Shown: in pieces, positions 10,033 through 52,016 of the stretch
How the letters are laid out: each line of letters opens with the position of its first letter
How positions within the stretch are numbered: position 1 is the first letter of the stretch
Assembly: GCA_038062955.1 (NCBI GenBank)
Contig: JBBTWE010000001.1
Span: 3,927-67,926, forward strand
Reading direction: 5' to 3'
Length of the DNA stretch: 64,000 bases
DNA from: Patescibacteria group bacterium
GTDB taxonomy: Bacteria > Patescibacteriota > Minisyncoccia > Phycocordibacterales > BOKC01
Translations under genes and position numbers: made by a program
The notes under the pieces: model-generated
Databases searched by the model: none
Seen by the model: only the letters and a program-made list of their open reading frames with translations
Told to the model about the DNA's origin: nothing

Positions 10033-10061
10033 AAAAATAAATTTAATTATTTTGAATTCTG

Positions 10062-10263: not shown

Positions 10264-10284
10264 CTTAATTCAATGGATTAATAA

Positions 10285-28244: not shown

Positions 28245-28260
28245 CAATTTGTAAACATTT

Positions 28261-30033: not shown

Positions 30034-30037
30034 AATT

Positions 30038-32247: not shown

Positions 32248-32253
32248 AATTAT

Positions 32254-34722: not shown

Positions 34723-34780
34723 GAGACAAAAGAAATAATTTTAAATCTTAAATTATTAAAAATCATAAATCTTAAATCCA

Positions 34781-35887
34781 ATGATTCCATACGGTAAACA
34801 ATCAATAGATCAGAGTGATATCGACGCAGTAGTTGAGACCTTAAAATCTCCATTTTTAACTCAAGGTCCAAAGGTCAAAGAATTTGAAGAAAAGTTAGCT
34901 GCCTACTCTGGCGCAAAATATGCCGTGGCTGTTTCAAATGGTACTGCGGCTTTACACGTTGCTTATTTAGCGGCAGGAATAAAAGCCGGGGATGAAGTTA
35001 TAACATCTCCTAACACATTTGTGGCTACATCTAATATGTTACTCGTAATTGGTGCGAAGCCGGTTTTTTGTGATCTCCGACCTGATACTTGCAATATTGA
35101 CGAAACGAAAATCGAAAAACTTATCACCAAAAAAACAAAAGCGATTGTTCCTGTGCATTTTGCTGGCAATCCTTGCGACATGGACAAAATAAAATCTATC
35201 GCAAAGAAACACAAACTTCTCGTGATTGAAGACGCTTGTCATGCACTCGGGGCGAGTTTCAAAGATAAGAAAATTGGATCTATTGGCGATATGAGCGTCT
35301 TTAGTTTTCATCCTGTAAAATCAATTACAACTGGCGAGGGTGGAGCAATCTTGACTGACAATAAAAAATTCTACGAAAAAATGCTTACCTTGCGAAGCCA
35401 CGGAATTCATAAAGATAAAAAAGGACTTGTTGTTATGACCCATATGGGATGGAACTATCGCATTACGGACATCCAGGCCGCTCTCGGCGTCTCCCAGTTA
35501 AAAAAACTTGATGGTTTTATTGATGCGAGAAGACAGGTTGTTAAATGGTACGAAGAAGCTTTTAAGGGTGCAGGTGGAATCATCCTGCCAAAAGAAACTG
35601 CAGGTTCAAAGTCCGCCTGGCACGTTTATGTAATCAGAGTTAAAAATAAAAAAGATCGTTTTCCTCTTGCAAATTTTCTTAAAGAAAAGGGAATTGGAAT
35701 TAATTTTCATTATCCTGCCGTTTACGGTCAACCATATTATAGAAAAAATGGTTATGCTAAGACAAAATTAAAAGAGGCTGATTTATATAATATTACCGCA
35801 ATTACTCTACCTCTTTTTCCAAACTTGAGCCGTCAGGAGGTGAAGCTTATTGTGCGAAGCATTAATGAGTATTTTATAAAAAATTAA
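34781..35887 (+). CDS. pseC: DegT/DnrJ/EryC1 PLP-dependent UDP-4-keto-sugar aminotransferase (PseC-like)
   Basis: FSFHPVKSITTGEGG PLP-lysine region; GWNYRITDIQAALG. Confidence 0.8.
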   Translation: MIPYGKQSIDQSDIDAVVETLKSPFLTQGPKVKEFEEKLAAYSGAKYAVAVSNGTAALHVAYLAAGIKAGDEVITSPNTFVATSNMLLVIGAKPVFCDLRPDTCNIDETKIEKLITKKTKAIVPVHFAGNPCDMDKIKSIAKKHKLLVIEDACHALGASFKDKKIGSIGDMSVFSFHPVKSITTGEGGAILTDNKKFYEKMLTLRSHGIHKDKKGLVVMTHMGWNYRITDIQAALGVSQLKKLDGFIDARRQVVKWYEEAFKGAGGIILPKETAGSKSAWHVYVIRVKNKKDRFPLANFLKEKGIGINFHYPAVYGQPYYRKNGYAKTKLKEADLYNITAITLPLFPNLSRQEVKLIVRSINEYFIKN

Positions 35888-35897
35888 ATATACTATT

Positions 35898-36857
35898 GTG
35901 ATTAAAAAAATTGCGTGGGGGACAAGCAAACTATTAGAAATGTATCTACGGCAAACAAAATCTAATCCGTTTAGTTATTGCATCGATGATTTTACAAAGC
36001 GTGATATGTTTTGTGGATTACAGGTAAAAAGATCGACTACGTTATCGAATGAAAAGAAAGGGGAATTCTTGATGGTTATTTTTGCCGTTTCAAATGAAGC
36101 TCTTCAAGAAATATCTTCTTCCCTTAGATCCAGTGGGCTGTCATATGGAAAAGATTTTATTTTTTATTCAGACTTTTTCCGTCCTAATTTTGAAAAAAAG
36201 ACCGAGAAACTTCTGGGAATTAAACTGAACAACGATCTTTACAGATATGCGTTATCTTTTACTTTAAATTCGAGAACATCCATTCATACGACCATATTGG
36301 GGACGTGGTTGTTTCTTGAATTGGTAAAAAAAGTTGATTCTTTGCATGGCCAAATTGCTGAAGTCGGTTCTTTTCAGGGTGGAAATGTGCTATGTGCTCT
36401 TAATTTTATGGCGGCGGCAGGATTACACCCTAAAAAATATTATGCCTTCGATTCATTTGAGGGTTTTCCGGAATTAAGTGAATTTGATCCAAAAAGTTTT
36501 CGGCGTGGTGATCATTCTATAAAAGTGATTCCGCAGGAGATAATGGATAAATTTGTTATTTTTCCAAATGCGAAAATTGTCAAAGGTTTTATCCCGAAGA
36601 CTTTTAGTCATATTGGTAATAACGAACGATTCGCATTAGTTTTTTACGATTGCGATCTATACGAGCCGGCACTTGCGACTTATAAGTATTTCTGGGATAA
36701 AATAGTCCCTGGAGGATATATGGTGATACATGATTATGAGACTCAAACAGGCGGTTTTACTGGAGTCAAGAAAGCATCCGAGGAATTCTTCGGTCCATTA
36801 GGTGTTGTTCCTACATCTTTTTTTGAGAATACCATGGCTGTAATAAAAAAACAGTGA
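35898..36857 (+). CDS. TylF/MycF-family SAM-dependent (O-)methyltransferase with N-terminal extra domain
   Basis: EVGSFQGG...FDSFEGFP...FYDCDLYE...GGYMVIHDY. Confidence 0.55.
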   Translation: MIKKIAWGTSKLLEMYLRQTKSNPFSYCIDDFTKRDMFCGLQVKRSTTLSNEKKGEFLMVIFAVSNEALQEISSSLRSSGLSYGKDFIFYSDFFRPNFEKKTEKLLGIKLNNDLYRYALSFTLNSRTSIHTTILGTWLFLELVKKVDSLHGQIAEVGSFQGGNVLCALNFMAAAGLHPKKYYAFDSFEGFPELSEFDPKSFRRGDHSIKVIPQEIMDKFVIFPNAKIVKGFIPKTFSHIGNNERFALVFYDCDLYEPALATYKYFWDKIVPGGYMVIHDYETQTGGFTGVKKASEEFFGPLGVVPTSFFENTMAVIKKQ

Positions 36858-37924
36858 AAGTCATACCATACGATAAAACAAGAAAGAATGAATGGGATGC
36901 TTTTTGCATTGCGAGTGATGATGCATGGTTTTGGCATACATCAGATTGGTTGGAATATACAATTAATTATAAACCGGAGCTAACAACTACCGATTTAAGT
37001 TTTTTGGTCTATGATCAGGACAAAATAGTTGCTATTGTTCCACTCACTTTGGAAAATACTTTATTGCTTACCGAAACGGTTAGAGAGTTTTCTTTTGGTG
37101 GATGGACTATTCCTGCGCCCGCATTGTTACCCGGGCTGTCTGTGGGTGAACGAGAATATCTCCACACATTTATTTTTAAGGAAATAGATAATCTAGCCAC
37201 TCAAAGTAATGTTGTTCGGGCAAGTTTCAGAATTAGTCCGCTTTCTTCAAATGAACGGGGAAATGTCCACTACAATTATCTTCTCCCTTTCGGGTATAGT
37301 GATGTTTCTCTGTTTACGAGAATTATTGATTTAAATAAAAGACCGGAGGAATTGTGGAATGATCTTCGGCGGAATCATAAACGCAGTATAAAAAAAGTCA
37401 GTGATTTTAAGGTATCTTTTTTTTCATCTGAAAACATAACTAAAGAAATCTTTGATGAGTACAAAAAAATGCATCATAAGGCCGCTGGACGTAAGACCCG
37501 CCCGGACATTACTTTTGAAATGATGTTTGACTGGATTCAAGATAATCTCGGTTTCTTGGGGGTGGTGGAATATCGGGGTGAAAGAATCGGTTTTGAGTAT
37601 TACACAATATATAAAAATAAAGCATATGGATTTTCTGCCGCTAACGAGCCCGCATATTCTTATTTGCCCATACGACCGATTTTGGAATGGGAAGCTATGT
37701 TATGGATGAAGAAAAAAGACATCTCTACCTATGAAATCGGTGTAGATTATTATGGAACCCTGCCTTATGATGTGCCGGATTCTGAACAGTTAAACATCTC
37801 TCATTTTAAAAGAGGTTTTGGTGGAGTTCCCGTCCCATTGATAATGGCTGAAAAATTTTATAACAAGGATTACTTCCTAAAAATGACTGATTATCGAGCA
37901 CACCGTTTTGCTTCAACGTTATGA
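36854..37924 (+). CDS. FemAB/Acetyltransf_6-like GNAT-fold acyl/aminoacyl transferase (putative)
   Basis: Overall length and pattern; weak. Confidence 0.4.
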   Translation: MKVIPYDKTRKNEWDAFCIASDDAWFWHTSDWLEYTINYKPELTTTDLSFLVYDQDKIVAIVPLTLENTLLLTETVREFSFGGWTIPAPALLPGLSVGEREYLHTFIFKEIDNLATQSNVVRASFRISPLSSNERGNVHYNYLLPFGYSDVSLFTRIIDLNKRPEELWNDLRRNHKRSIKKVSDFKVSFFSSENITKEIFDEYKKMHHKAAGRKTRPDITFEMMFDWIQDNLGFLGVVEYRGERIGFEYYTIYKNKAYGFSAANEPAYSYLPIRPILEWEAMLWMKKKDISTYEIGVDYYGTLPYDVPDSEQLNISHFKRGFGGVPVPLIMAEKFYNKDYFLKMTDYRAHRFASTL

Positions 37925-38889
37925 TAACTACGAAATTAATTATTATAGGTTTTGGCTCAATCGGACAGAGACACTATAAAAATCTCCTTTCTCTTGGGTA
38001 TGAAAATGTTTATGTTTACGATGTAGATCCAAAAAAGATTCAAGATTCAAGATTCAAGATTCAAGATTTAGATGAAAAGACACTAAAAGATTTTAATGTC
38101 GCTTTTATAACCAACCCGACCCACTTACATGTTGAAACAGCTTTGCTTGCGGCCAAAGCCGGTTGTCATTTGTTTATCGAAAAACCCCTTTCTCATAATC
38201 TAAAAGGTATAAAGAATCTAATAGAAGTTGCTAAAAAGAAAAAGAGTATTGTGATGGTTGGATGCAATTATAGATTCAACAAAGGTTTTAAAATGTTAGA
38301 AGAGGTTGTGAAGAATAAAAAATTCGGTGATCCATTATTGTCTCGAGTGGTGATCAGTCAAAATTTAATTAAGTCTCGGCCTGGAGTTGATTTCAAGACT
38401 ACCTATGCGGCGCAATCAAAATTTGGCGGCGGAGTTATATTAGATTCTGGATCGCACGCTGTTGATTATCTCTCTTCTCTATTTGGTTTCGGCAAATGCG
38501 TTTCTGCCTACTCCGAAAAAAATGACAAACTTGATATAGACGCGGAACACTCGGCTAATTTTATTTTGAAGCATAAAAATGGGGTTGTATCGGAAGTCAG
38601 TCTGGACTATTTCGGTGAACCTAAAAAGCATTCTTTAGAAGTGCAATTTAAAAATGGTTCTGTTAAATGGAATTTTGCCGGAAATACAATCGAGACTTAC
38701 GATAGCAAAAGTGGGGAATCAAAAATCACTTCGATTTACGGAGCGAGTGAGATAGAATCGGCTCGAAATGATATGTATGTGGAAGAGTTGCGACATTTTT
38801 TAAATGCGGTTAAATATAGTGGACCCGTAATCAATGATTTGGAAAATGCGTTTGAGGTTATGAAAATATTAATTAAAGCCAAAAAATAA
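37921..38889 (+). CDS. Gfo/Idh/MocA-family NAD(P)-dependent oxidoreductase
   Basis: IIIGFGSIGQRH Rossmann N-terminus; contains in-frame heptamer repeat. Confidence 0.7.
   Translation: MITTKLIIIGFGSIGQRHYKNLLSLGYENVYVYDVDPKKIQDSRFKIQDLDEKTLKDFNVAFITNPTHLHVETALLAAKAGCHLFIEKPLSHNLKGIKNLIEVAKKKKSIVMVGCNYRFNKGFKMLEEVVKNKKFGDPLLSRVVISQNLIKSRPGVDFKTTYAAQSKFGGGVILDSGSHAVDYLSSLFGFGKCVSAYSEKNDKLDIDAEHSANFILKHKNGVVSEVSLDYFGEPKKHSLEVQFKNGSVKWNFAGNTIETYDSKSGESKITSIYGASEIESARNDMYVEELRHFLNAVKYSGPVINDLENAFEVMKILIKAKK
38036..38070 (+). repeat. in-frame heptanucleotide tandem repeat (agattca)x4+agattta
   Basis: Encodes KIQDSRFKIQDL; same heptamer family as 8395-8436. Confidence 0.65.
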
Positions 38890-38892
38890 TCC

Positions 38893-40200
38893 ATGGCAAA
38901 AACAAATAAAAAAAGAATTTTGCAAAAATCTAAAATCCTTCTTGAAAAGGCCGAAAAAATTATTCCTAGAGGCGCTCAAACCTTAAGCAAAGCGCCAGAT
39001 CAGTTTATTCGTGGCGTTTCTCCCTATGCAATTGCAAAAGGTAAGGGCTGTCATGTCTGGGATGTCGATGGAAATAAATATATAGATTTAGCTTCCTCGC
39101 TCGGCGCGATTGTTTTGGGGCATCAATTTCCTCTTGTTGAAAAAGCAATAAAGAAACAGAGAAAAAACGGGACACTATTTTCTCTCCCCGGGGAATTGGA
39201 AGTCGAGCTCGCAGAAAGAATTAAAAAAATGATTCCTTTTATGGAAAAGATGCGTTTTGGTATGAATGGTTCTGATGCAACGTCTGGTGCTATTCGTGTT
39301 GCCCGAGCTTATACCGGGAGAGACCATGTTGCTAAGTGCGGTTATCATGGTTGGACTGATTGGTCTATTGCAACCAATCCGCTTCGAAGCAAAGGTGTGC
39401 CACAAGTGGTTAAGGATCTGACCCATGAATTTAAATATAACGATATTGGAAGTTTGGAGAAAATTTTTGAGGATCATTCAGGAAAAGTCGCAGCTGTTAT
39501 CTTAGAGCCAGTAAGTACTGTGTTGCCAGAAAAAGATTTTTTGAATGAAGTAAAAAGGTTGGCTCATAAAAACGGAGCAGTATTGATTTTCGATGAATTA
39601 GTAACAGGCTTCAGATTAGCTAGGGGAGGTGCGGCGGAATATTTCAAAGTCGAACCAGATTTGGCTTGTTATGGGAAAGCAATTAGTAATGGTGAGCCGC
39701 TTTCAGTCTTTGGGGGCAAAGGCGAAATCATGGATGTTTTAAGCGGGCAGGACGTGTTCTACTCTTTTACCTATGCCGGATATCTTCCCTCAATTGCAGT
39801 TGCGATAGAAGTACTCAAATTCATGGAAAAAAACAATGTCCAGAAAAAACTTTGGAAAACCGGAGAATTACTTATCGCCAAATACAAAAAACTTACGGAA
39901 AAATATAAAGTGCCAACAAAAGTAACTGGAATCGGGCCTCACCCAATTTTTGCTTTTAAAGATGAGAAAGGGGGAGATAATCTCGCTCTCAAAAGTTTAT
40001 TCTTGCAGGAAACAGCTAAGCGTGGAATTTTGACCAACTGTTCGAATCTCACGAACTATTCTCATGAAGTTAAAGATATTGAAGAAGTATCTAAACGATT
40101 GGAAGAAATTTTTGTAATTATAGAAAAAGCGGTTCGAGAAAATAAAGTTGAAGAAAGGTTGGAGGGGCCTATGATACGCCCTCGCAGCAAACCCCTCTAA
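38893..40200 (+). CDS. class III PLP aminotransferase (glutamate-1-semialdehyde aminomutase-like)
   Basis: DELVTGFRLARGG, CYGKAISNG (PLP lysine). Confidence 0.75.
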   Translation: MAKTNKKRILQKSKILLEKAEKIIPRGAQTLSKAPDQFIRGVSPYAIAKGKGCHVWDVDGNKYIDLASSLGAIVLGHQFPLVEKAIKKQRKNGTLFSLPGELEVELAERIKKMIPFMEKMRFGMNGSDATSGAIRVARAYTGRDHVAKCGYHGWTDWSIATNPLRSKGVPQVVKDLTHEFKYNDIGSLEKIFEDHSGKVAAVILEPVSTVLPEKDFLNEVKRLAHKNGAVLIFDELVTGFRLARGGAAEYFKVEPDLACYGKAISNGEPLSVFGGKGEIMDVLSGQDVFYSFTYAGYLPSIAVAIEVLKFMEKNNVQKKLWKTGELLIAKYKKLTEKYKVPTKVTGIGPHPIFAFKDEKGGDNLALKSLFLQETAKRGILTNCSNLTNYSHEVKDIEEVSKRLEEIFVIIEKAVRENKVEERLEGPMIRPRSKPL

Positions 40201-40420
40201 AACCTCATATTCGGCACACTTCGTTGTCGCCGCACTCGTTTGCTCCCGCAATGTATAAGTACATACATTTTGGTCGACAAGCCTCGCTTGCTCCTAGAAT
40301 TGCGCTCGAATCTGAGATTTTAGAGTTTCTTCATTCGGTCAATTTTTATATAAAAAAACACCTTGGGACAATTCGTGTATCACGAACGTTCTCAAAGTGT
40401 TGTGGATGGGGGTAGCCCCA

Positions 40421-40867
40421 TCAACCTTCCCCAGGCAACTCTCCTCTTCGTGGCAAGCGACCGTGTTGCTCTAAAAACTGGAGTGACATTTCTGCCTTCT
40501 TCTTTGCACGGCGGTTGATTGCTATTTTTTGTTCACGCGTGAGAGTGAGTATTGAACCAATCTCTTCGCCGTAACCTACTTCTAGTGCACAAGCAGCTAT
40601 CTCTGTACAGTGATCCAAGAATTCCTCACTAGCTGTGCCATCGAAGATGTCGCCGGTGATGAGCCTCATTTCTTGGCTGTAATTTATCATCTTTATGTTC
40701 TGTGCGGCATGTGGACCAAAATCGCCGATACTTCGGCATACTGCACGAATTCTCTCCGCTTCGACGAGCATCTCTCTGAATTTTGCGTCCATTTCTGGTC
40801 TCCCTGGTTTGTTGTGTTTGAGATCAAAATCCTTTAGTAGGATAGCATAGGAAAAAATTTCTGTCAA
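40421..40867 (-). CDS. hypothetical protein, GC-rich island (weak MazG-like NTP pyrophosphohydrolase resemblance)
   Basis: GYGEEIGSILTLT resembles MazG EExGDxL; hairpin+T7 terminator downstream on minus. Confidence 0.3.
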   Translation of the reverse strand: MTEIFSYAILLKDFDLKHNKPGRPEMDAKFREMLVEAERIRAVCRSIGDFGPHAAQNIKMINYSQEMRLITGDIFDGTASEEFLDHCTEIAACALEVGYGEEIGSILTLTREQKIAINRRAKKKAEMSLQFLEQHGRLPRRGELPGEG

Positions 40868-40915
40868 ATTTCCTTTCGTAAAATAGAAATAGAACCTATT
40901 CTCTGTCGCTATACG

Positions 40916-41521
40916 TTATACGTTTACACCTAATTTTTGAAGTTCACTTTTGCACTGATCGAGGGATTCGAATAGAAAGGCATACATGCCGAGGTTTCTT
41001 GCCGCTTCAACATTTTTTTTGGAGTCATCGATAAAGATGGTTTCTTCTGGTTTTGATCCAAGTTCTTTAAGTGCTAATTCATAAGCCGTAGTGTTGGGCT
41101 TCATGATACCGATTTCATTGGAAAAAAACATTCGCGGGAATATTTTTTTGAGATTGTGATTATTTAGAATATGTTCCATCATCTCTTCGGTTAGATTAGA
41201 AAGAACAGCTGTCTTGTAATTTTTTTTGAGTTTTTTTGCAAGCTCAAGCATTTCCGGCCATATCTTGTAAGACGAAGTATAAGCTTCTCCTAATTTTGTT
41301 GGAGTAAGATTTTTTAATTTGAAAAATTCAATTATTTTATTCCAGAATTGTTCTTTGGACATCTCTCCACGATAGTATGGTTTTTGAATATCCTGGGATT
41401 TTTCTCCCATTTCATCAACACTTAAACCAGTTTGTTTGGTAATTTCAGGATGAAAAAATGGCTCTCCTGGGTTGCAAAAGACCCCGGCCCAATCAAATAT
41501 TATGGTTGTAATTTTCTTCAT
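40916..41521 (-). CDS. HAD-superfamily hydrolase
   Basis: IIFDWAGV (DxxG motif I), IFIDDS motif IV; start set at ATG preceded by AGGAGG. Confidence 0.7.
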   Translation of the reverse strand: MKKITTIIFDWAGVFCNPGEPFFHPEITKQTGLSVDEMGEKSQDIQKPYYRGEMSKEQFWNKIIEFFKLKNLTPTKLGEAYTSSYKIWPEMLELAKKLKKNYKTAVLSNLTEEMMEHILNNHNLKKIFPRMFFSNEIGIMKPNTTAYELALKELGSKPEETIFIDDSKKNVEAARNLGMYAFLFESLDQCKSELQKLGVNV

Positions 41522-41543
41522 ACCTCCTATAATACAAACTAAT

Positions 41544-42659
41544 ATGAACGGGGACAAGAACAGCAAAAATATGAAAATTTTTCTACCCAACAACCACAGT
41601 AAGTGGAAAATAGACTATAAATTGGTTAGTCCAGATAATAATGAAAATCTAAAGAAAGTTTTCTTGGAAAATTTTTCCAACATTGCTGATTCAGTAATAT
41701 CAATAGAACAAGTGGCTGAGACCGAAGTGAATAGTAATAATTTTAAACTTGGAACTTCCAAGGGTAAAAAGAAATCATTTTTCTTACTTCGCCGATATCC
41801 AGAAACTCGAAATATCGATTCCATAAAAGGCGCTCATGAGGTTTTAAATTTTTTAAATAAAAGTGGGCTGAAAACCCCAGAAATTATTTTGTCAGATAGT
41901 GGGGAGGAGATAGTTCATACGACCCCATACCACTACACTGTTTTTAAATTTCTCAAATCCAATCATTTTAAAGGAAGCTTGGATGAAATAAAAAGTGCTG
42001 CGAGAGAATTTGGCAAAATGGATGCTCTTCTAGAAAAATTGCCAGATGCTACTAAAATAAAGAAGATGCTCGAGTTTCCTCCGAAAGTTCTAAAGTTAAG
42101 AGAATTTTCTACAGAAATTTGGGAAAACATATTTAAAGAAGCAGGGAAACACCTAGAAGAAACCAATGACGAATTTGATTCCAAACTTCTTTCTTTTAAG
42201 GATTTTATTCTAGACGCTGTTAAAAAAACAGAAAGCTTGAAAGATGAAGCAAAAACATTAGATAAACAAATTATTCATTTTGATCTTCATCCTCATAATC
42301 TTTTAACTGACGGCAAGAAATTGGTAGCAATACTCGATTTCGATTCTTTAAGGAATTTTCCCAAAATGCACGGGATTGCTTTTGCGATGCATCGACTCGT
42401 GAGGCAATATATTGTCTTTGCCAAACCTAAAAATATCAAAAAAGCTGTAGAAAAGGCTAAAGAAATTTTTCTTAATGTATATCAAAAGGAAAATCCACTA
42501 ACCGAGCTTGAAATTAAATTAATTCCGTTTTTTCTAAAAACAGAAGCACTCTCAAGACTTTCTTACGCAATGAAAGATTTTTATTTTAATGGTAATGCTG
42601 CGTGGAAAGGGGATTTGGACAAGCAGACCGCTGCCATAGCAGAAGCAGAGCATTTTTAA
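41544..42659 (+). CDS. APH/choline-kinase-like phosphotransferase
   Basis: IIHFDLHPHNLL...ILDFDS (Brenner motif + DFD). Confidence 0.6.
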   Translation: MNGDKNSKNMKIFLPNNHSKWKIDYKLVSPDNNENLKKVFLENFSNIADSVISIEQVAETEVNSNNFKLGTSKGKKKSFFLLRRYPETRNIDSIKGAHEVLNFLNKSGLKTPEIILSDSGEEIVHTTPYHYTVFKFLKSNHFKGSLDEIKSAAREFGKMDALLEKLPDATKIKKMLEFPPKVLKLREFSTEIWENIFKEAGKHLEETNDEFDSKLLSFKDFILDAVKKTESLKDEAKTLDKQIIHFDLHPHNLLTDGKKLVAILDFDSLRNFPKMHGIAFAMHRLVRQYIVFAKPKNIKKAVEKAKEIFLNVYQKENPLTELEIKLIPFFLKTEALSRLSYAMKDFYFNGNAAWKGDLDKQTAAIAEAEHF

Positions 42660-42692
42660 AATCCTAAATCTTATATCGTAAATCATAAATCT

Positions 42693-43451
42693 ATGAGTAC
42701 TCTCTGTATAATTCAAGCTCGAATGAGCTCAACAAGATTACCCGGAAAAGTTTTGAAAGAGATAAACGGTAAACCTATGCTTTTTTATTGTTTGGAAAGA
42801 TTAAAAGAATCTAAAACTTTGGATAAGGTGGTGGTTGCAACGAGTGATCATAAAGATGACGATGTAATTGCCGATTTTTGCCAAAAAGAAAAAGTAGATT
42901 GTTTCCGTGGGTCACTCGAAGACGTATTGTCGCGCTACGCCGAATGTGCAAAAAAATATCCAGAATATGACACCATTGTTCGTGTGACTTCCGACTGCCC
43001 TTTGATTGATCCAAAAGTAGTCGATAAAGTTGTCTCAAATTTCTTAAAAGAAAAAATGGATTATGTAAGCAATGTCCTAGAAGAAACTTTTCCAGATGGA
43101 ATTGATATTGAAGCTTTTTCTAGAAAGGCACTTTTAGCTTCCGACAAAGAAGCCCTACTTCATTCTGAAAGAGAGCATGTTACTTTATATATTCGAAACA
43201 ACCCAAAATTTAAAAAACTAAACATTAAAAATAAAGTTAATATGTCTAAATACCGTTTGACGGTAGATAACCCCGAAGACTTCGAAGTAATTTCATTCTT
43301 AATAGAGAATTACGGATACAAACTTACCTTCGAAGAATACTGCAAGCATTTAGATAAGCATCCAGAAATTATGGAGAAGAATTCTAAAATTGAGCGAAAT
43401 GCCGGTCTCAAAAAATCTCTTAAAGAAGATAAGAATTCTTCTAATTCCTAG
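42693..43451 (+). CDS. CTP_transf_3-family cytidylyltransferase (CMP-nonulosonate synthetase/SpsF-like)
   Basis: IIQARMSSTRLPGKVL N-terminal motif. Confidence 0.7.
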   Translation: MSTLCIIQARMSSTRLPGKVLKEINGKPMLFYCLERLKESKTLDKVVVATSDHKDDDVIADFCQKEKVDCFRGSLEDVLSRYAECAKKYPEYDTIVRVTSDCPLIDPKVVDKVVSNFLKEKMDYVSNVLEETFPDGIDIEAFSRKALLASDKEALLHSEREHVTLYIRNNPKFKKLNIKNKVNMSKYRLTVDNPEDFEVISFLIENYGYKLTFEEYCKHLDKHPEIMEKNSKIERNAGLKKSLKEDKNSSNS

Positions 43452-44384: not shown

Positions 44385-44624
44385 TTAATATCGGTGTCCA
44401 TCGATATAACCCTTGGCAAAGCTCAAGCACTCGTGGAAAGATGGAGTGACGTGGCCACTTCCGGCGAGATACCAATTCCGCGGGTCAGAGAAATCGTTCT
44501 CGAGATCGGCCCAGTTGCATCCCTCTGGTAGGTTTCGGTAACGAGGGTCTTGCTTCAGGGCACTCAATACTTGCTGGATCACCGCAGGCAGGCCTTCCAA
44601 ACCAGGCAATTGGTCAGATATCAT
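44385..44624 (-). CDS. hypothetical small protein, GC-rich island
   Basis: 79-aa ORF in ~58% GC region. Confidence 0.35.
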   Translation of the reverse strand: MISDQLPGLEGLPAVIQQVLSALKQDPRYRNLPEGCNWADLENDFSDPRNWYLAGSGHVTPSFHECLSFAKGYIDGHRY

Positions 44625-44730
44625 TACTCAACTCCTTTGGTTTCTTAGTGGGTAAAGGGAACAGTCCTTCACAATTATGGCATATCAATGAAATTTCTGC
44701 AAGTTTTTGCGTGTTCTTTTTTCCTTTTGA

Positions 44731-44770
44731 ATAAAAAAATCCGCCTCAACGCACGAATGCGGAGGCGGAT
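44731..44770 (-). terminator. rho-independent terminator for beta-propeller gene
   Basis: atccgcctc...gaggcggat stem with A7 on plus (U-run on minus). Confidence 0.5.
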
Positions 44771-44798
44771 GAAGCAAGGAACCTCGCGGCTCTACTTG

Positions 44799-45623
44799 CT
44801 AGCTGAACATGTGCGCAGGAACGAAGACCAGAGCCCCTGGCTTCTCGATCGAGTGACCGTACTGGGTCACGATCGCATTGCCATCAGGATCGAAGGCGAT
44901 GCCGTTGCCGCAGAGGCCGGGAATCACGAGTTCGCCGTCGTGGTAGATGCCCTTACGTTCCGTGGCGCGGAAGTCGGTGATGGTCCAGAGGCGGTCACTA
45001 CCTTCTTGACGTGCGATGCCGTAGCGGAAGGCGCCAATGTCTTCCTTGCTTGCACGTTCGAGGGTGTTGTCGTCTGCGAATGCGTACTCGTTGATTGTCC
45101 ACGCGTCGCACTTCACGTTGGACTCCACTGTGTGGACATTGTCACCCCTCAGCAAGAGAGAGTGCACCATCGTACCTTCTTCCACGTCATCGGGGAAGGA
45201 GATTTCTTCGTTCAGGAATCTCCACCTTCCACCTTCCGTTTCCGGAGGTGAGATGACGAAGATCTTGCGATCGCTGTTCCGGAGAACGCAGAGGTTGCCC
45301 GCACCATCGAAGTATGCAACCTGCATACGGTTGAAGTCCTTCTTGAAGAAGTCGGGGAAGAGGCGGGTGGTTCCTTCGGCCCCCTTCACGAACTTCATGT
45401 CCATGACGATGTCGTCGCCATCCTGCCGCAGCTTCCCGAGGCAGACTTGCGGTTCGAAGTACTCTGCGATCACGAACTGGCCGGTCTGGGGGTCGTAGCT
45501 CACTCCCAAGGGCTGGGATGCGATCTCGATCCTCACTGGGCCCCCCGGCGAGCTCTCGAGTTCCGAAGCGAATCTGGCCTGGATGCTTGGCGGTGCTGAG
45601 CTGCAACGCCGTTGGGTGTTCAC
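44799..45623 (-). CDS. SMP-30/gluconolactonase/NHL-like beta-propeller protein, GC-rich island
   Basis: GNGIAFDPDGN-type blade motifs. Confidence 0.45.
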   Translation of the reverse strand: MNTQRRCSSAPPSIQARFASELESSPGGPVRIEIASQPLGVSYDPQTGQFVIAEYFEPQVCLGKLRQDGDDIVMDMKFVKGAEGTTRLFPDFFKKDFNRMQVAYFDGAGNLCVLRNSDRKIFVISPPETEGGRWRFLNEEISFPDDVEEGTMVHSLLLRGDNVHTVESNVKCDAWTINEYAFADDNTLERASKEDIGAFRYGIARQEGSDRLWTITDFRATERKGIYHDGELVIPGLCGNGIAFDPDGNAIVTQYGHSIEKPGALVFVPAHMFS

Positions 45624-45732
45624 GATTCATGGCTGTGTTCCTGTGCTTTGTAAGGTCAAGGTGCAATTCCAGCGAAGTGCTGGATTCCTCCATAATAATA
45701 CCTATATTGGCTTTTTTGTCAAGCACCATGAT

Positions 45733-45761
45733 TTGACATTCTGAAGACAGTATGTTAAATA
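45733..45761 (+). promoter_or_regulatory. sigma70-like promoter TTGACA-N17-TAAATA
   Basis: Near-consensus; 50 nt upstream of GTG 45811 with GGGGGA SD. Confidence 0.5.
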
Positions 45762-45810
45762 TAAAGGCAGTTGTTCTTCAATAAAAACAAACACAAAAAG
45801 GGGGATTCCC

Positions 45811-46644
45811 GTGAAAAGCGTGAAGCAGATTCTTGACTTGGCCTACCGCCTGGCACTTCTGTGGATTCCGTGCTTCTTTCTATTCAACAAGGTGTGGGGA
45901 GAGGTTACGTGGGAGCAGGCCTTCCACAACACAGCGTTCTATCTTCCGGTTGTGGCCTCGATCTTCTGCCTGTCTTTCCAATTTGACTTGTTCACGCAGA
46001 TTGTTGAGAGAAAGGAAATCAACATCAAGGCGCGAGCGATTGACTTCATTCACTGGCTTCTTCTCATTTCCATCAATGTCAGCCTCTGGATGTTCGGGGG
46101 TGTAACGATCTGGTGGCTTGTCCTTCAACTTGCAATGCTCGTTCTCATTGGTGCTCAAATTGGAATCAGGAGCGCACAGAGAGAATCGATCTTTTCGATG
46201 AACGAAAAGGTTGCTGGTGGAGTCGCCGCGTCGTTCGCGCTTCTTCTGGGAAGTGCTGCCGGTTACATTCGGTATGCAAGCCCAGAAGGAAGTAGTGCGG
46301 GATGGTGGCTCGATTCGATCACAGGTATCGTCTCGATCGTGCTTGTTGTCGGGTTCATAACTCAAGACCTCTCTACTATCCGCAAGGATTGGACGCCCTA
46401 CCCACGGAAGATATTTCTCAAAGGGGTCTTCGGTTGCAACGTCATGATCTTGCTCAATTGGGTGAGTGTGATGAGCAAGGCGGATTGCAACTGGAGTTAC
46501 GAGTGTTGGTTTGGTCAGCATTTCGGCTTCACTTTTGTCACAATCGTTGGGAACTCGGTCTACCTCGCCTTCTGGGGAATGTACGAGTTCTACCGAGCGA
46601 AGCAAGAGAGGGAGAAGAGAGGTTGGGGACCACTCATGGTATGA
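45811..46644 (+). CDS. polytopic membrane protein, GC-rich island
   Basis: Several hydrophobic helices; promoter+SD; preferred over antisense ORF 45880..46605. Confidence 0.5.
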   Translation: MKSVKQILDLAYRLALLWIPCFFLFNKVWGEVTWEQAFHNTAFYLPVVASIFCLSFQFDLFTQIVERKEINIKARAIDFIHWLLLISINVSLWMFGGVTIWWLVLQLAMLVLIGAQIGIRSAQRESIFSMNEKVAGGVAASFALLLGSAAGYIRYASPEGSSAGWWLDSITGIVSIVLVVGFITQDLSTIRKDWTPYPRKIFLKGVFGCNVMILLNWVSVMSKADCNWSYECWFGQHFGFTFVTIVGNSVYLAFWGMYEFYRAKQEREKRGWGPLMV

Positions 46645-46654
46645 CCGGGTCTCT

Positions 46655-46884: not shown

Positions 46885-47955
46885 ATGAAAACCATAAAAA
46901 TTGGGAAAAGAAAGGTGGGGGAAGGACAGCCAACTTTTATCGTGGCGGAGATTTCTTGCAATCATGAACAGAAATACGAACAGGCCGAAGCTATTGTAAG
47001 AGCCGCGGCTTCTGCTGGAGTTGATGCTGTTAAAATGCAGACTTATACTCCGGATACGATCACTTTACCTTCTCGAAAAAAATGGTTTTTTGTTGGAGGC
47101 AAGACCAATCCTGATGCATGGAAGGGACAGACTTTTCACGATTTATATAAAAAAGCTTACACGCCTTGGGATTGGCAGCCAAAGCTTCAAAAATTAACAC
47201 ACTCTTTGGGGATGGAATTTTTTTCAACTCCATTCGATGAAACAGCCGTAGATTTTCTAGAAAAAATGAAAGTGCCGGTTTATAAAGTTGCCGCTTATGA
47301 ATCAACTGATTTTACTCTGCTTCGAAAAGTTGCCAAAACAAAGAAGCCCGTAATTGTGTCGGTTGGCTTCGCTACACTCAAAGAAGTTGAATTTATTGTT
47401 GAAACTTTAAGGAAATATGGTGCCAAAGAAATAATTATTTTGCAGTGTACAACTTCATACGCCAAAGAAGCTATTTCTGAAAAAACAAATCTGGCGACGA
47501 TGAAAGATATTAAAGAAAGATTTAAGGTTGAGGTTGGTCTGTCTGACAATATGGGGGGAATTGAAGTGCCGGTTTTGGCTTCTGCGCTGGGTGCGTCTGT
47601 GATTGAAAAGCACATTGTCTTAAATCGAGAAGGCGCGGCGCTTGATGACAGATTTTCTCTCGATCCAGTAGAATTTAAAGCGATGGTGGATAAAATAAGA
47701 TGGCAGGAAAAAGTGAAAGGAAAAGTTGCTTATGGTCCACAGACTGAATCAGAAAAGTTCAATCGAGGTTTTAGACGCTCGCTTTTTGTTTCTCAAAATA
47801 TAAAAAAAGGAGAAAAAATTACTCCTAAAAATGTAAGGTCAGTGCGCCCAGCAGACGGTCTCGAAACAAAATATTACGATGAAGTTATGGGCAAGATTGC
47901 CAAGAAAGATATCGAAGAAGGAACTCCTTTGGCTTGGAACTTAATATCTAAATAA
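46885..47955 (+). CDS. nonulosonic acid synthase (NeuB/PseI/LegI family) with C-terminal SAF domain
   Basis: PTFIVAEISCNHEQ N-terminus, TIM-barrel plus antifreeze-like C-terminal domain. Confidence 0.85.
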   Translation: MKTIKIGKRKVGEGQPTFIVAEISCNHEQKYEQAEAIVRAAASAGVDAVKMQTYTPDTITLPSRKKWFFVGGKTNPDAWKGQTFHDLYKKAYTPWDWQPKLQKLTHSLGMEFFSTPFDETAVDFLEKMKVPVYKVAAYESTDFTLLRKVAKTKKPVIVSVGFATLKEVEFIVETLRKYGAKEIIILQCTTSYAKEAISEKTNLATMKDIKERFKVEVGLSDNMGGIEVPVLASALGASVIEKHIVLNREGAALDDRFSLDPVEFKAMVDKIRWQEKVKGKVAYGPQTESEKFNRGFRRSLFVSQNIKKGEKITPKNVRSVRPADGLETKYYDEVMGKIAKKDIEEGTPLAWNLISK

Positions 47956-47959: not shown

Positions 47960-49120
47960 ATGATTCTTTTTGAACATGAAGGCAAAGAACTTCTAAAATC
48001 TGCTGGTATAAATATCCCACGTGGGGAGTTGCTGAAATCGGAAAAAGATAAAATCTCCATTTCTTTCCCTCTTGTGCTTAAAGCTCAAGTACTCTCGGGC
48101 AAGCGTGCCCTACGTGGCGGAATTGTCATGGTCGAGAACAAAGATTCTCTCTCAAACTCTCTCAAAAAAATCTTCAATCTCAAAACTTTTGGAGAACCGG
48201 TCCAAGCCGTACTGGCAGAGGAGAAAATTCCTTATAAAAAAAGCTTCTATTTGTCATTTTCTTATGATACTAATTTCAGATCTGCAGTTTTGAGCTGGTC
48301 GCACGAAGGAGGTACAGGAGTCGAGGAGAGGAAAGTTAACATCATCCCTTTCGATATCAGAAAAATTGTCTTTCCAAAGGATATGCCTTTCCCGGTAGAA
48401 ATTCTCGAGTTACTTGTAAAAATCTTTCTTGAAAATGATTGTTTGCTTCTTGAAATAAACCCACTTGTCTCTTTTTTAGATAAAACTGGGAAAGAAAAAT
48501 GGTGCGCGCTTGATGCCAAGGTTAACCTTGATGACACGGCAGGAGGTAGACATAAGAATTGGCAATATTCTCCAAGAAATTCTGGGAAAGTATCAGAGCG
48601 AGAAATTGCCGCTAAAAAAATCGACGAAGGTGATCATCGCGGAACGGCTGGTTCAAGCTTCGTTGATTTGGAAGGTGATATAGCAATTCTTGCGTCCGGC
48701 GGCGGGGCATCATTAGTTGCTATGGATACTCTTCTTTCTTTGGGTGGAAAGCCAGCTAATTACACCGAATACTCTGGTAATCCTCCAAGAGAGAAAGTTT
48801 TGCGCCTCACTGAGATCGTACTCTCAAAACCAAATTTAAAAGGTCTCTGGATTATTGGAGCGGTTGCTAATTTTACTGATATTTATGAGACTCTTTCGGG
48901 AGTTATCGAAGGTATTCGATCGATTGAAAAGAAAACCGGAAAGAAGTTTGATTTTCCGATAATTATTCGCCGGGGTGGGCCTAGAGAAAAAGAGGCTTTT
49001 TCGATGCTTAAAGAAGTGAAAGATTTAAATATTAAATTTTCTGGTCGGGAAATTTCAATTGCCGAGTCTGCCAAAATTGTTATGGAAGAAACAAAACGAT
49101 ACGCTAAGTTTTCAAAATAA
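47960..49120 (+). CDS. ATP-grasp beta subunit of ADP-forming CoA ligase (SucC/AclB-like)
   Basis: N-terminal ILFEHEGKELLKSAGI like SucC; Ligase_CoA-like C-terminal half. Confidence 0.55.
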   Translation: MILFEHEGKELLKSAGINIPRGELLKSEKDKISISFPLVLKAQVLSGKRALRGGIVMVENKDSLSNSLKKIFNLKTFGEPVQAVLAEEKIPYKKSFYLSFSYDTNFRSAVLSWSHEGGTGVEERKVNIIPFDIRKIVFPKDMPFPVEILELLVKIFLENDCLLLEINPLVSFLDKTGKEKWCALDAKVNLDDTAGGRHKNWQYSPRNSGKVSEREIAAKKIDEGDHRGTAGSSFVDLEGDIAILASGGGASLVAMDTLLSLGGKPANYTEYSGNPPREKVLRLTEIVLSKPNLKGLWIIGAVANFTDIYETLSGVIEGIRSIEKKTGKKFDFPIIIRRGGPREKEAFSMLKEVKDLNIKFSGREISIAESAKIVMEETKRYAKFSK

Positions 49121-49122
49121 AC

Positions 49123-50019
49123 ATGATACTTTTACCAAAAGGAGCAAAAATAATTGGACAAGGACTAACGGGATCGGAGGGACGAATTTGTCTGCCGACC
49201 ATGCTTCAATATGGTACGAAAGTTGTTGCAGGAGTGACGCCTGGAAAAGGAGGCCAAGAAGTTTTCGGAGTACCGATATTTAATAGTGTGAAAGAGGCGA
49301 TTGAAACTGTCGGAGAAGTTCACGGCTCTGTTCAATTCGTTCCTCCACTTTTTGTTCTTGCCGCAACGAAAGAGGCAATTGAAGCTGGAATAAAATTTAT
49401 TTTAATCGGGGCTGAAAAAGTTCCAGTAAAAGATGCTGCTCAAATAATTTCGCTTGCTCGAGAAACTGAGACTACAATTGTGGGACCAAGCTCGGTTGGT
49501 CTAATTAACCCAGGCAGGTCTCTTAAAATTGGTGGAATCGGTGGCAGTGAGCCAGAACGAGTGTACGCGGAAGGGGAAGTCGCAGTGATTTCTAAGTCTG
49601 GGGGGATGACTTCAGAAATAAGTTTGCATTTAAAAAATAATTCTTTGGGAGTGAGTTTTGCTCTTGGAATTGGAGGAGAGCGTTTGGTGGGAAGTGATTT
49701 TGCCGATTGGCTCATCGCCCTGGAGAAAGACCCGGAAACCAGAGTATCGGTAATTTTTGGCGAATTAGGTGGCACTTATGAAGAGCGAGTCGCCGAATGT
49801 GTAAAAACAGGTAAAATTAAAAAACCGGTTATTGCGTTTATTGCCGGAGAATTTGCCAGTATTTTGCCTTCTGGAATTCAATTTGGGCATGCCGGTGCAA
49901 TTATCGAAGCTGGGCGGGGAGATCCAAAAGAAAAAAGAAGAATATTAAAAGAAGCAGGTGTGTTGGTGGCAGAGAAGTTTGATGATATCGCCAATTTGGT
50001 TAAAAAAGCATTAAAATAA
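49123..50019 (+). CDS. CoA-binding alpha subunit of ADP-forming CoA ligase (SucD/AclA N-terminal-like)
   Basis: Aligns to SucD throughout incl. GQGLTGSEG, VTPGKGG, QFGHAGAII phosphohistidine loop. Confidence 0.8.
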   Translation: MILLPKGAKIIGQGLTGSEGRICLPTMLQYGTKVVAGVTPGKGGQEVFGVPIFNSVKEAIETVGEVHGSVQFVPPLFVLAATKEAIEAGIKFILIGAEKVPVKDAAQIISLARETETTIVGPSSVGLINPGRSLKIGGIGGSEPERVYAEGEVAVISKSGGMTSEISLHLKNNSLGVSFALGIGGERLVGSDFADWLIALEKDPETRVSVIFGELGGTYEERVAECVKTGKIKKPVIAFIAGEFASILPSGIQFGHAGAIIEAGRGDPKEKRRILKEAGVLVAEKFDDIANLVKKALK

Positions 50020-50024
50020 TGTAT

Positions 50025-50116
50025 GATTTACGATATAAGATTTATGATTTAAGATTATCAAAGGACATACAGCGTTTAAATTTAAATCTGACATCATAAA
50101 TCGTAAATCTTAAATC
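50025..50116. repeat. inverted heptamer arrays (GATTTAN)x4 ... (NTAAATC)x4 filling intergenic region before 50121
   Basis: gatttac gatataa gatttat gatttaa - spacer - tttaaat ctgacat cataaat cgtaaat cttaaatc. Confidence 0.5.
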
Positions 50117-50120
50117 AACC

Positions 50121-50795
50121 ATGTCTTTAACTGTAAATCACAAAGATAACGAATCATATTTGGGTGACAAACCTCTTCTTAAACTTGCCAGAGAAAAAAA
50201 TTTTTCGGAGCTTATATTTATTTTGCTTGCCGAGCGGGAACCGAGCAAAGATGAACTTTCGATTTTTGAATTGATTCTAAATATTTCAATTGACCATGGT
50301 CCAGACACTCCATCAGCTAAAGCGGTGATTGAAAAAGCAAAAGGAGGTGAAAATATCGGAGAAGCTGTTGCGTCTGGTATGCGAGAGATAAATGATGTAC
50401 ACGGTGGAGCACAAGAAGCTCTTATGCCAATTTTGTATAAAATAGTAAAAGAAAAATTGTCAGCCGAAAATATTGTGAAAGAATTTGTAGAAAACAAAAA
50501 ACGTCTGCCCGGATTTGGTCATCGTTTATATAAAGATAACGATCCGCGTGCCGAACTTATAATTACAACTCTGGTTGAAAATGGTTTGGGAGAGGATTAT
50601 GTTGCTGCAAGCCGCGCACTCCAAAAATCACTTAAAGATATTACTGGAAAAACTTTGCCTTTAAATATTGATGGAGCTATCGCTGTCGCTCTTTGTGCAT
50701 TTGGTCTCCCTCCATCTTTAGGCAAACCAATTTTCATGATTGCTCGCACCCCCGGCCTTTGCGCTCATTATTTGAATAATAAGCCGATAAATTAA
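50121..50795 (+). CDS. citrate-synthase-fold small protein (citryl-CoA lyase / ACLY C-terminal-domain-like)
   Basis: GFGHRLYKDNDPRA matches citrate synthase G[FY]GHxV..DPR signature. Confidence 0.6.
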   Translation: MSLTVNHKDNESYLGDKPLLKLAREKNFSELIFILLAEREPSKDELSIFELILNISIDHGPDTPSAKAVIEKAKGGENIGEAVASGMREINDVHGGAQEALMPILYKIVKEKLSAENIVKEFVENKKRLPGFGHRLYKDNDPRAELIITTLVENGLGEDYVAASRALQKSLKDITGKTLPLNIDGAIAVALCAFGLPPSLGKPIFMIARTPGLCAHYLNNKPIN

Positions 50796-50879: not shown

Positions 50880-51512
50880 ATGCAAACAAACACACAAAAA
50901 GTAGTTGTTGTTCTTGGCGGTGGCCTTCGAAAAGATGACACTGGCAGATGGTGTACAGTTGGTCTTGCTCAGGGTGGCGATAACTTTGCCGCTTCAAATG
51001 ACAGGTGGCGAATCGATGCCGCACACACTCTTTGGAAGAGCGACCCTTCTACGACTCTCGTGCCATCTGCGGGTCAGGGTCAGTACAAAGGAACTGACAC
51101 TCCAGCTGTAGCCGAAGTAATGGCAAGCGAACTTGTGGAACTTGGGGTTCCAGAATCGGCTATTACGAAGGACATTGAGTCTGGCAATACCGTAGAGCAA
51201 CTTCGCATGACAGCAAAGCTTGCAAGAGAAATGGGGTTGCGACAGGTTGCCGTTTTAAGTAATGAATGGCACTTGGCTAGAATTCAAGCAATGCTGGATC
51301 ATGCTCCTGGTCTCGTCCAAGCTTTCACTGGGATACTGGTAAACTTGGTGGCCGCAGAAAGCATTTTGTGGGCGGAGTCGAAGGAGTGGCAAGAACGGAT
51401 TAAAGCCGCGAGAGTTGACTCGGGAATCATGAAGCGCGTCGAGTTGGAAGCAAATGGAGTAAGGCAGATCCAGGAAGGAACGTACCGGTGGCCACCTAGT
51501 TCTTCTGTGTAG
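50880..51512 (+). CDS. DUF218/YdcF-like protein, GC-rich island
   Basis: VVVLGGGL N-terminus and overall YdcF/ElyC-like pattern; GC-rich. Confidence 0.5.
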   Translation: MQTNTQKVVVVLGGGLRKDDTGRWCTVGLAQGGDNFAASNDRWRIDAAHTLWKSDPSTTLVPSAGQGQYKGTDTPAVAEVMASELVELGVPESAITKDIESGNTVEQLRMTAKLAREMGLRQVAVLSNEWHLARIQAMLDHAPGLVQAFTGILVNLVAAESILWAESKEWQERIKAARVDSGIMKRVELEANGVRQIQEGTYRWPPSSSV

Positions 51513-51560
51513 TAAACAAGGTCACGACCAGCATTTAATATATGCTGGTTTTTTGTTAGA

Positions 51561-52016
51561 ATGGACTTCATGAAAAAAGATTTAACATTAACCCTTCGCC
51601 CTGCAACCATCGCTGATGCTCTAATGCTTTTGGAATGGAGGAATGATGAGGAGACCAGGCGTCAGTCGGTCAATATGGATAAGGTTTTACTAGAGACGCA
51701 TTTACCGTGGCTTGAAAAAGTTATTGCTAACCCTAACAGGAAACTCATGATTGCGGAGTTGGAAGGTACCCCTGTTGGTACAGTTAGATTGGATATTGAA
51801 GAACCGCGCTCGGAATTAAGTTGGACTATAGCACCCAAAATGCGGGGCAAAGGATTTGGTACGTTAATGGTGATTGAAGCGGTTAAGTATTTTAATAAAC
51901 CTCTTAAAATAATTATAAAACCAGGGAACCTTGCCTCATTTAAAGTTGCGGAAAAAGCAGGATTTAAAAAAATAAACGAAACCGCGGATATGACAAACTG
52001 GATTCACGACAAATAA
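51561..52016 (+). CDS. GNAT N-acetyltransferase (PseH candidate)
   Basis: LRPATIADALMLLEWRNDEETRRQS resembles PseH N-terminus; GNAT core GKGFGTLMV. Confidence 0.55.
   Translation: MDFMKKDLTLTLRPATIADALMLLEWRNDEETRRQSVNMDKVLLETHLPWLEKVIANPNRKLMIAELEGTPVGTVRLDIEEPRSELSWTIAPKMRGKGFGTLMVIEAVKYFNKPLKIIIKPGNLASFKVAEKAGFKKINETADMTNWIHDK

Follow-up and report, generated by a model that had tools for sequence, protein, structure and literature searches.

Members of the Candidate Phyla Radiation (CPR, Patescibacteria) account for a substantial part of bacterial diversity, and the supply of central precursors in these bacteria is poorly understood. Genes resembling those for succinyl-CoA synthetase (SCS) as well as for citrate synthase (CS) are routinely read in such genomes as remnants of the tricarboxylic acid (TCA) cycle, and the locus described here raises the question of what such genes may do instead. 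It lies in a 64-kb stretch of DNA from a Patescibacteria genome of Hainich groundwater (hereafter, the window), in which a gene for a SucC-like β subunit, one for a SucD-like α subunit and one for a 224-aa protein with a citrate-synthase fold follow a nonulosonate synthase gene. Identical genes are also present in Hainich groundwater assemblies. The exact trio proteins are in GenBank (MEK7551837-39), on a 703,865-bp contig of a metagenome-assembled genome (MAG) named “Patescibacteria group bacterium”; their names are domain-level only, and the lyase-like protein is labelled just “citrate/2-methylcitrate synthase”. An initial annotation had recognized in the three genes the domain set of ATP-citrate lyase (ACL), or of citryl-CoA synthetase (CCS, CcsAB) plus citryl-CoA lyase (CCL, Ccl), and this holds for the matches in the Protein Data Bank (PDB), the citrate-binding and catalytic residues, the fold and the β tree. 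Judged from sequence, the trio is probably a CCS (β plus α) accompanied by a minimal CCL, cleaving citrate and having a role in acetyl-CoA supply; the three proteins together would act as an unfused ACL.

The three open reading frames (ORFs) lie on the forward strand as originally described, and the gene upstream passes the curated model for PseI, the pseudaminic acid synthase (Table 1). The β subunit exceeds the gathering scores of PF08442 (3.1e-22) and of PF16114, “ATP citrate lyase citrate-binding” (1.7e-26). Its closest solved structure is the large subunit of CCS from Hydrogenobacter thermophilus (6hxq_B, 184.6 bits, E = 2.6e-53), compared with 128 bits (3e-36) for Chlorobium AclB and 92.6 bits (2.4e-25) for the best of the SCS β chains. 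When CcsA is identified by BLAST against 6HXQ, as in PMC13147460, β is closer to CcsA than to SCS β. The SucC models of NCBIfam gave 158 bits against a cut-off of 375.55, that is, less than half of it.

The citrate site was compared with that of human ACL (ACLY), whose numbering was anchored on a fragment 100% identical to residues 256-420 of 3mwd_A. In this alignment, G273, N304/F305/T306 and R338 of β correspond to G309, N346/F347/T348 and R379 of ACLY, and these positions are kept in 44-45 of the 45 trio-linked β sequences. We take G309, N346 and T348 of ACLY to be citrate contacts. R379 is a mutation site in the citrate-binding domain (PMC10593830). At the position where β has ANFT, E. coli SucC has FGGIVRCD, and on the whole the citrate-site motifs of β look more like those of ACL than those of CCS. 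A neighbor-joining (NJ) tree of β sequences with six reference sequences separated the SCS β references from all other sequences in 200 of 200 bootstrap replicates, so that branching of β within bona fide SCS was not seen.

The α subunit contains the intact phosphohistidine loop attributed to it (QFGHAGAII): its H256 aligns with the phosphohistidine H246 of E. coli SucD and is invariant in 42 of 42 relatives. The SucD models of NCBIfam gave 272 bits for this protein, under their cut-off of 353.2.

The motif quoted for the 224-aa protein, GFGHRLYKDNDPRA, was found as well. This protein matches only the C-terminal two-thirds of the Pfam Citrate_synt model, and its best sequence match in the PDB is the CCL of Hydrogenobacter (6hxp_A, 1.3e-36, phmmer). 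An AlphaFold2 model (pLDDT 94.2, pTM 0.90) showed the large-domain fold of citrate synthase, the N-terminal region and the C-terminal tail both being absent. Foldseek placed CCL 6hxp first for this model (TM 0.91, rmsd 1.6 Å, 36% identity), followed at TM 0.85-0.89 by the CCL modules of ACL from human and Chlorobium, with full citrate synthases at about 0.7. Eight residues by which citrate synthases are verified are listed in PMC13147460; seven of them were recovered in the alignment with E. coli CS (GltA), where H59, H94, H134, R143, D184, F205 and R209 of the lyase correspond to H229, H264, H305, R314, D362, F383 and R387. These seven are invariant in a 22-member family alignment, and thus the catalytic and oxaloacetate-binding set of the CS-like protein is kept. 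A full-length citrate or 2-methylcitrate synthase (about 360-430 aa) was ruled out by the length of the protein, by NCBIfam citrate-synthase scores of at most 77 bits where the cut-offs exceed 330, and by the lower TM value relative to CCL.

By homology, the reaction would begin with the phosphorylation of α-His256 by ATP. The phosphate would then move to citrate in the citrate-binding domain of β, and attack by CoA would displace it to give citryl-CoA, which the 224-aa lyase would split into acetyl-CoA and oxaloacetate by means of its His/His/Asp set (H94, H134, D184). Both the substrate and the direction of the reaction are inferred. A TCA cycle is reported to be absent from CPR bacteria (PMC7143001, PMC12114108), and in such cells the trio could be an anabolic source of acetyl-CoA, and of oxaloacetate, from scavenged citrate. 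According to a survey of groundwater CPR, these bacteria cannot synthesize fatty acids either (PMC12114108); since both the cycle and this pathway are reported absent, N-acetylation of amino sugars may be a major sink, in keeping with the repeated occurrence of the trio beside genes for PseH-like acetyltransferases and nonulosonate synthases. In the lineage of the window, a main sink would be the N-acetylation of amino sugars for a pseudaminic-acid-type glycan, because the trio appears to be co-transcribed with pseI and lies beside a gene for a PseH-like acetyltransferase of the GNAT family, the presumed consumer. The idea of a minimal acetyl-CoA generator in a reduced genome, proposed in the initial annotation, appears to be the best-supported function.

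The junctions between the genes are consistent with a common transcript. The β gene begins 4 nt after the stop codon of pseI, and the α gene 2 nt after that of β; the sole terminator-like hairpin with a T-run in the stretch from pseI to the DUF218 gene is found 3′ of the latter. Because of these tight junctions and the position of the terminator-like site, pseI, the trio and the DUF218 gene probably form one transcript. The context was examined in the window and in ±10-kb flanks of the loci of relatives, which were obtained by scanning species-representative genomes (80 loci, some of which are referred to by an L number). The order β-α-lyase was colinear in 46 distinct loci, usually with gaps of a few bases; most belong to CPR, one to an Iainarchaeum (DPANN) and one to an Anaerolineae MAG. 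Complete CPR genomes with the trio include CP066686 and OY970314. In two Planctomycete loci (L061 and L062, about 7392-10681) the β gene is followed by one long ORF spanning the α and lyase matches, a fused ACL-type arrangement; crude ORF extension gave 978 and 1082 aa for these ORFs, and the tblastn matches imply about 700 aa. In the NJ tree the β of this fused type is nearer to the CPR clade than to the classical ACL references. The lyase has 929 relatives at E ≤ 1e-10 in a collection clustered at 90%, and those with names include Daviesbacteria, Woesebacteria, Microgenomates, Paceibacterota and Giovannonibacteria. At E ≤ 1e-30, a profile search of a library clustered at 50% gave 97 clusters, and just a few of these contain the short form typical of the close CPR relatives.

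A NeuB/PseI homologue is encoded within 10 kb of the trio in the window and in 5 of the 45 other species (L007, L015, L023, L044 and L060). By chance, about 0.9 of 45 would be expected (P about 0.002; Poisson estimate assuming one NeuB per genome of about 1 Mb). The six linked loci show at least four gene orders. The window has pseI-β-α-ccl-DUF218-GNAT, L015 and L044 have pseF-β-α-ccl-DUF218-pseI-GNAT, and L023 has pseI-DUF218-GNAT-β-α-ccl; in L060 the order is pseB-β-α-ccl-neuB, in direct contact, around a trio just 33-37% identical. The PseH-like GNAT accompanies trio and NeuB in five of the six (all except L060), and in the window, L015, L023 and L044 DUF218, the trio, PseI and this GNAT occur together. 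The PseB-to-PseF gene set also flanks the trio in L005/L044 and in L015. Among the conserved neighbours of trios, nonulosonate-class genes were counted as NeuB/PseI in 5 loci, PseH-like GNAT in 5 and DUF218 in 4. In the β tree the linked cases are spread over at least three branches, although not every case is phylogenetically independent. A GlmU-like neighbour was considered too as a sign that acetyl-CoA goes to amino sugars, and was dropped as too weak: it occurs in 2 species only, and the protein combines a hexapeptide domain with an NTP-transferase of generic type.

The same citrate-cleaving chemistry could serve a purely housekeeping role, with the adjacency to pseI an accident of a compact genome that carries a large glycan island. 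Most trios do lie in housekeeping surroundings (DnaG upstream in 5 loci, RpoD upstream in 5, TrpRS downstream in 7; L003 is of this kind), the Pse-linked trios do not form a separate paralogue clade in the β tree, and the island takes up about 50 kb of a small genome. However, the linkage to NeuB recurs in at least three branches with rearranged orders, including the divergent trio between PseB and NeuB, and it exceeds the chance estimate; moreover, only 4 nt and no terminator separate pseI from β, and the PseH-like GNAT is present in nearly all linked loci. We regard a housekeeping role alone as rather unlikely. A specific coupling of the trio to Pse synthesis is nevertheless less certain than the cleavage of citrate for acetyl-CoA supply. 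In its most elaborate form, which we put forward as a speculation of doubtful standing, several CPR lineages would have recruited the trio into a nonulosonate operon as a built-in precursor supply, in which citrate would yield acetyl-CoA for PseH-type N-acetylation and oxaloacetate would possibly yield, through phosphoenolpyruvate (PEP), the three-carbon unit used by PseI. Glycan synthesis would then depend on citrate derived from a host or from the community, and the minimal lyase and the spacer hairpin described below would be adaptations of a “mini-ACL”.

The ligase and lyase could also use another hydroxy-di- or tricarboxylate, such as 2-methylcitrate, to provide an unusual acyl-CoA, for example propionyl-CoA, for N-acylation of the nonulosonate, as the initial annotation had offered as an alternative. 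All three proteins score under the curated family cut-offs, the C-terminal arginine with which citrate synthases complete their citrate/oxaloacetate pocket is missing from the lyase, the island contains FkbH-like, phosphopantetheinyl transferase (PPTase), MaoC and short-chain dehydrogenase/reductase (SDR) genes, and the NCBI label of the lyase goes no further than “citrate/2-methylcitrate synthase”. In contrast, the ACLY citrate-contact residues are kept in essentially all trio-linked β sequences, and the lyase shows no variation at seven of the eight citrate-synthase positions; given this conservation of the sites for citrate and oxaloacetate, the alternative is the less likely one. The housekeeping contexts of the trio in most genomes further argue against an exotic acyl donor dedicated to glycans, and we consider it improbable.

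Operation in reverse, in which acetyl-CoA and oxaloacetate would be joined into citryl-CoA and then converted to citrate and ATP, would make the trio an energy-conserving citrate synthase. The CCS and CCL reactions are near equilibrium (−5.9 and −2.1 kJ/mol, respectively, in the direction of cleavage; PMC13147460, Table 1), and substrate-level phosphorylation is described as the mainstay of CPR (PMC7143001). However, without a TCA cycle there is no known downstream use of citrate, and linkage to glycan enzymes that consume acetyl-CoA fits its supply and not its removal. To our knowledge, no organism runs CCS/CCL in the citrate-forming direction, and we find this possibility highly improbable. 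That the genes are what is left of a lost TCA cycle, an ordinary SCS and a citrate synthase in decay, is barely tenable, and a bona fide SCS plus CS was rejected. In favour of this reading, α is most similar to archaeal SCS α, SucC and SucD are the top NCBIfam families for β and α (both under cut-off), and public records of the family are annotated SCS/CS, as indicated in a preprint (bioRxiv 10.1101/2022.10.25.513756). Against it, β has the citrate-binding domain of ACL, with the corresponding residues where SCS has its own motif (ANFT vs GGIV), the scores stay under half the SucC cut-off, the PDB ranking and the 200/200 split exclude SCS β, and three genes that stay together in divergent lineages, their catalytic residues invariant, do not behave as decaying remnants.

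Other observations weigh against the proposal that the trio is a citrate-cleaving CCS plus CCL devoted to acetyl-CoA supply. Taken on its own, α is slightly nearer to archaeal SCS α (2yv2, 5e-71) than to the CCS small subunit (6hxq_A, 1.5e-61), and the NJ tree did not separate a sister position of the CPR β sequences to the CCS large subunit from one to ACL: a clade of trio β with the CCS large subunit appeared in only 4 of 200 replicates, trio β alone being monophyletic in 65 of 200. None of the three proteins reaches its curated NCBIfam cut-off; this includes the citryl-CoA lyase models (PRK06224 series), all five of which were missed, the best being NF004869 with 144.3 bits against 212. The lyase has no counterpart of the eighth verification residue, R407 of E. 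coli CS, an arginine contributed by the C-terminal tail of the partner subunit, because the lyase and the whole CPR family stop about 8 residues after the AHY motif. Members of this family are 220-235 aa long, whereas most other CCL-type matches have 245-270 aa, and close representatives end where the profile ends; without the arginine tail, the substrate pocket or the oligomer may differ. Neither the window nor the set of conserved neighbours contained a citrate transporter, an aconitase, a PEP carboxykinase or an oxaloacetate-using enzyme. Approximately 87% of the trios are not beside glycan genes, lying mostly with DnaG, RpoD or TrpRS, so that the glycan link is lineage-specific. Finally, some CPR have pyruvate:ferredoxin oxidoreductase as a source of acetyl-CoA (PMC7143001).

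The initial annotation had also placed a heptamer iteron array upstream of the trio. No such array is present there; Tandem Repeats Finder (TRF) detected heptamer repeats only within the trio, in the spacer between α and the lyase. The two rows (50025-50056 and 50093-50117) form the two sides of an AT-rich, imperfect inverted repeat, whose arms measure 46 nt and are 78% complementary, and the spacer folds as one hairpin of −22.4 kcal/mol (z = −4.04), a stability not reached by any of 200 shuffles. It is single-copy within the window. In most relatives the gap between α and the lyase is 1-40 nt. Long spacers (about 85 nt or more) often hold a strong hairpin (z −2.5 to −5.8; L011, L024, L041 and L055 in Table 1), and those of L015, L020 and L037 do not. 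The hairpins are unrelated in sequence among loci and Rfam finds nothing in the spacer, which rules out a conserved homologous RNA element. They could be palindromic elements that were inserted independently, or else intercistronic hairpins that recur because they control processing or translation.

Table 1. Features of the trio locus and its surroundings. Positions refer to the window, except for the last four rows, which give long hairpin-bearing α→lyase spacers in the coordinates of the loci named.
Feature	Position	Strand	Evidence
PseB-like dehydratase	33697-34722	+	Pfam
PseC-like aminotransferase	34781-35887	+	Pfam
CMP-sugar cytidylyltransferase (PseF-like)	42693-43451	+	Pfam
Rest of upstream nonulosonate module: methyltransferase, GNAT, GFO/IDH/MocA oxidoreductase, class-III aminotransferase, HAD (− strand), APH-type kinase	33697-43451	+	Pfam
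pseI, first gene of the putative operon; pseudaminic acid synthase of the NeuB family, with SAF domain	46885-47955	+	TIGR03586 PseI 410 bits vs cut-off 340; Pfam NeuB 2.2e-75
Putative CCS large (β-like) subunit, 386 aa	47960-49120	+	PF08442 ATP-grasp_2 + PF16114 Citrate_bind
Putative CCS small (α-like) subunit, 298 aa	49123-50019	+	PF02629 CoA_binding, PF00549 Ligase_CoA, PF13607
AT-rich α→lyase spacer, imperfect hairpin, 101 nt	50020-50120	+	TRF, inverted repeat, RNA fold
Minimal citryl-CoA lyase-like protein, 224 aa	50121-50795	+	PF00285 positions 137-346 of 357
DUF218 protein, closing gene of the putative operon	50880-51512	+	PF02698 7e-18
Terminator-like hairpin then T-run, 3′ of DUF218	51526-51550	+	9 pairs, 4 G-C, then TTTTTGTT
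PseH-like GNAT N-acetyltransferase	51561-52016	+	PF13302 2e-17; TIGR03585 PseH 47 bits, under cut-off 93
Long hairpin spacer, L011	4399-4512		
Long hairpin spacer, L024	9003-9134		
Long hairpin spacer, L041	9916-10000		
Long hairpin spacer, L055	4010-4123		

The trio is set, as previously noted, inside a glycan island, which occupies roughly 50 kb of the window. Besides the genes listed in Table 1, the island encodes six GT4 glycosyltransferases, a UDP-GlcNAc 2-epimerase and a Wzy/TPR protein, and its putative acetyl- or acyltransferases include GNATs at 36854 and 51561, an Antibiotic_NAT at 31438 and an MBOAT at 17252. Between PseC and PseF (37921-43451), the block formed by the GFO/IDH/MocA oxidoreductase, the class-III aminotransferase, the HAD phosphatase (− strand) and the APH-type kinase lies outside the canonical Pse pathway; it recurs in L015 and partly in L044, and it may specify a modified nonulosonate. 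An acyl-carrier-type sub-cluster at 27816-33558 (PPTase, FkbH-like loader, MaoC dehydratase, SDR, Antibiotic_NAT-type N-acetyltransferase and a DUF4910/DUF2172 protein) suggests a non-acetyl decoration, for example glyceryl- or hydroxyacyl-type, of the adjacent Pse sugar. The Pse gene set of the window showed no UDP-sugar hydrolase of the PseG type (GT28), and for this reason DUF218 might fill a missing step. The DUF218 gene of the window is atypical in composition, with a GC content of 0.50 and 0.45 at third codon positions (GC3), compared with a GC3 near 0.3 in host genes.

A GC-rich patch of 2.2 kb (44400-46650) separates the gene of an EamA transporter from pseI. Its two ORFs, 44799-45623 on the reverse strand (GC 0.59, GC3 0.75) and 45811-46644 on the forward strand (GC 0.50, GC3 0.63), match no Pfam family above threshold and gave just a sub-threshold NHL match. 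The patch has no counterpart in the related loci, and in L007 EamA directly abuts PseI; it has the appearance of foreign DNA inserted in this lineage only, or of a chimera made in assembly. Also within the island, a SAM riboswitch (RF00162, 55.8 bits, 10331-10430, reverse strand) lies directly upstream of the gene for the SAM synthetase MetK (9040-10032, reverse strand), and at the edge of the island a 589-aa protein (5191-6960) with a weak match to TrwB/type IV coupling proteins (E = 9e-6) is encoded beside a lamin-tail-domain protein.

If the trio is an unfused ACL, many CPR would have a defined route from external citrate to acetyl-CoA, following the logic of the cytosolic ACLY of eukaryotes. 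This would sharpen metabolic models, suggest citrate as a cultivation supplement and explain the origin of the acetyl groups in the amino sugars of peptidoglycan and surface glycans. The recurrence of the trio inside pseudaminic-acid-type clusters would be unusual in that it places a central-metabolic supply enzyme in a glycan operon, and the naturally truncated lyase would offer a ready-made minimal model of the active site of citryl-CoA lyase and citrate synthase.

The presence of the family in CPR is not new, because the 2022 preprint cited above already groups CPR/DPANN sequences annotated as SCS/CS in a monophyletic group with CCS/CCL, and the trio very probably belongs to the same protein families as these regrouped sequences. 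Its accessible text contains no analysis of residues or of operon context, and it treats neither a physiological role in CPR, nor a nonulosonate linkage, nor a truncated lyase. Literature searches on CPR together with citryl-CoA, ATP-citrate lyase or pseudaminic acid returned, apart from the brief phylogenetic remark of this preprint, no account of what the family does in CPR, of how its residues are conserved there, of the truncated lyase or of the link to glycan genes.

Among known systems, the trio can be likened to the CcsAB + Ccl of Aquificaceae and Leptospirillum, and in particular to that of Hydrogenobacter thermophilus (6hxq, 6hxp; Aoshima et al. 2004, cited in PMC13147460). Both consist of three separate polypeptides with the same domain set; the Hydrogenobacter proteins are the best sequence match for β and the lyase and the best structural match for the lyase, at about 36-37% identity, and the phosphohistidine and the His/His/Asp set are kept. 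They differ in the citrate site, where β of the window has EYSG/ANFT/RRGGP, ACL-like, and Hydrogenobacter has DIGG/ANNT/RRNGP, and in the C-terminus of the lyase, which is about 35-40 residues shorter than in the Hydrogenobacter type (224 aa vs 256-268 aa). In addition, the CPR host is of a reduced, heterotrophic, symbiont-like type with neither a reductive TCA (rTCA) cycle nor a TCA cycle, and the three genes apparently lie in one operon, here with pseI. With respect to ACL (AclAB of Chlorobium limicola, 6hxj; human ACLY, 3mwd/6hxh), the same chemistry is expected, the citrate-binding residues are identical to those of ACLY (G309, N346, F347, T348 and R379), and the trio would supply acetyl-CoA outside a TCA cycle much as the cytosolic enzyme does; however, α of the trio is not fused to a CCL module but is a separate ORF, set apart by the 101-nt hairpin spacer, and the lyase has no C-terminal tail. 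SucCD belongs to the same superfamily and shares the α/β architecture and the phosphohistidine mechanism, whereas the substrate domain of β is of the citrate type and the scores stay far below the curated SucC/SucD cut-offs. What distinguishes the trio from the known CCS/CCL and ACL systems is a host physiology without rTCA or TCA cycle, the ACL-like motifs of β, the tail-less lyase and an operon organization linked to nonulosonate genes.

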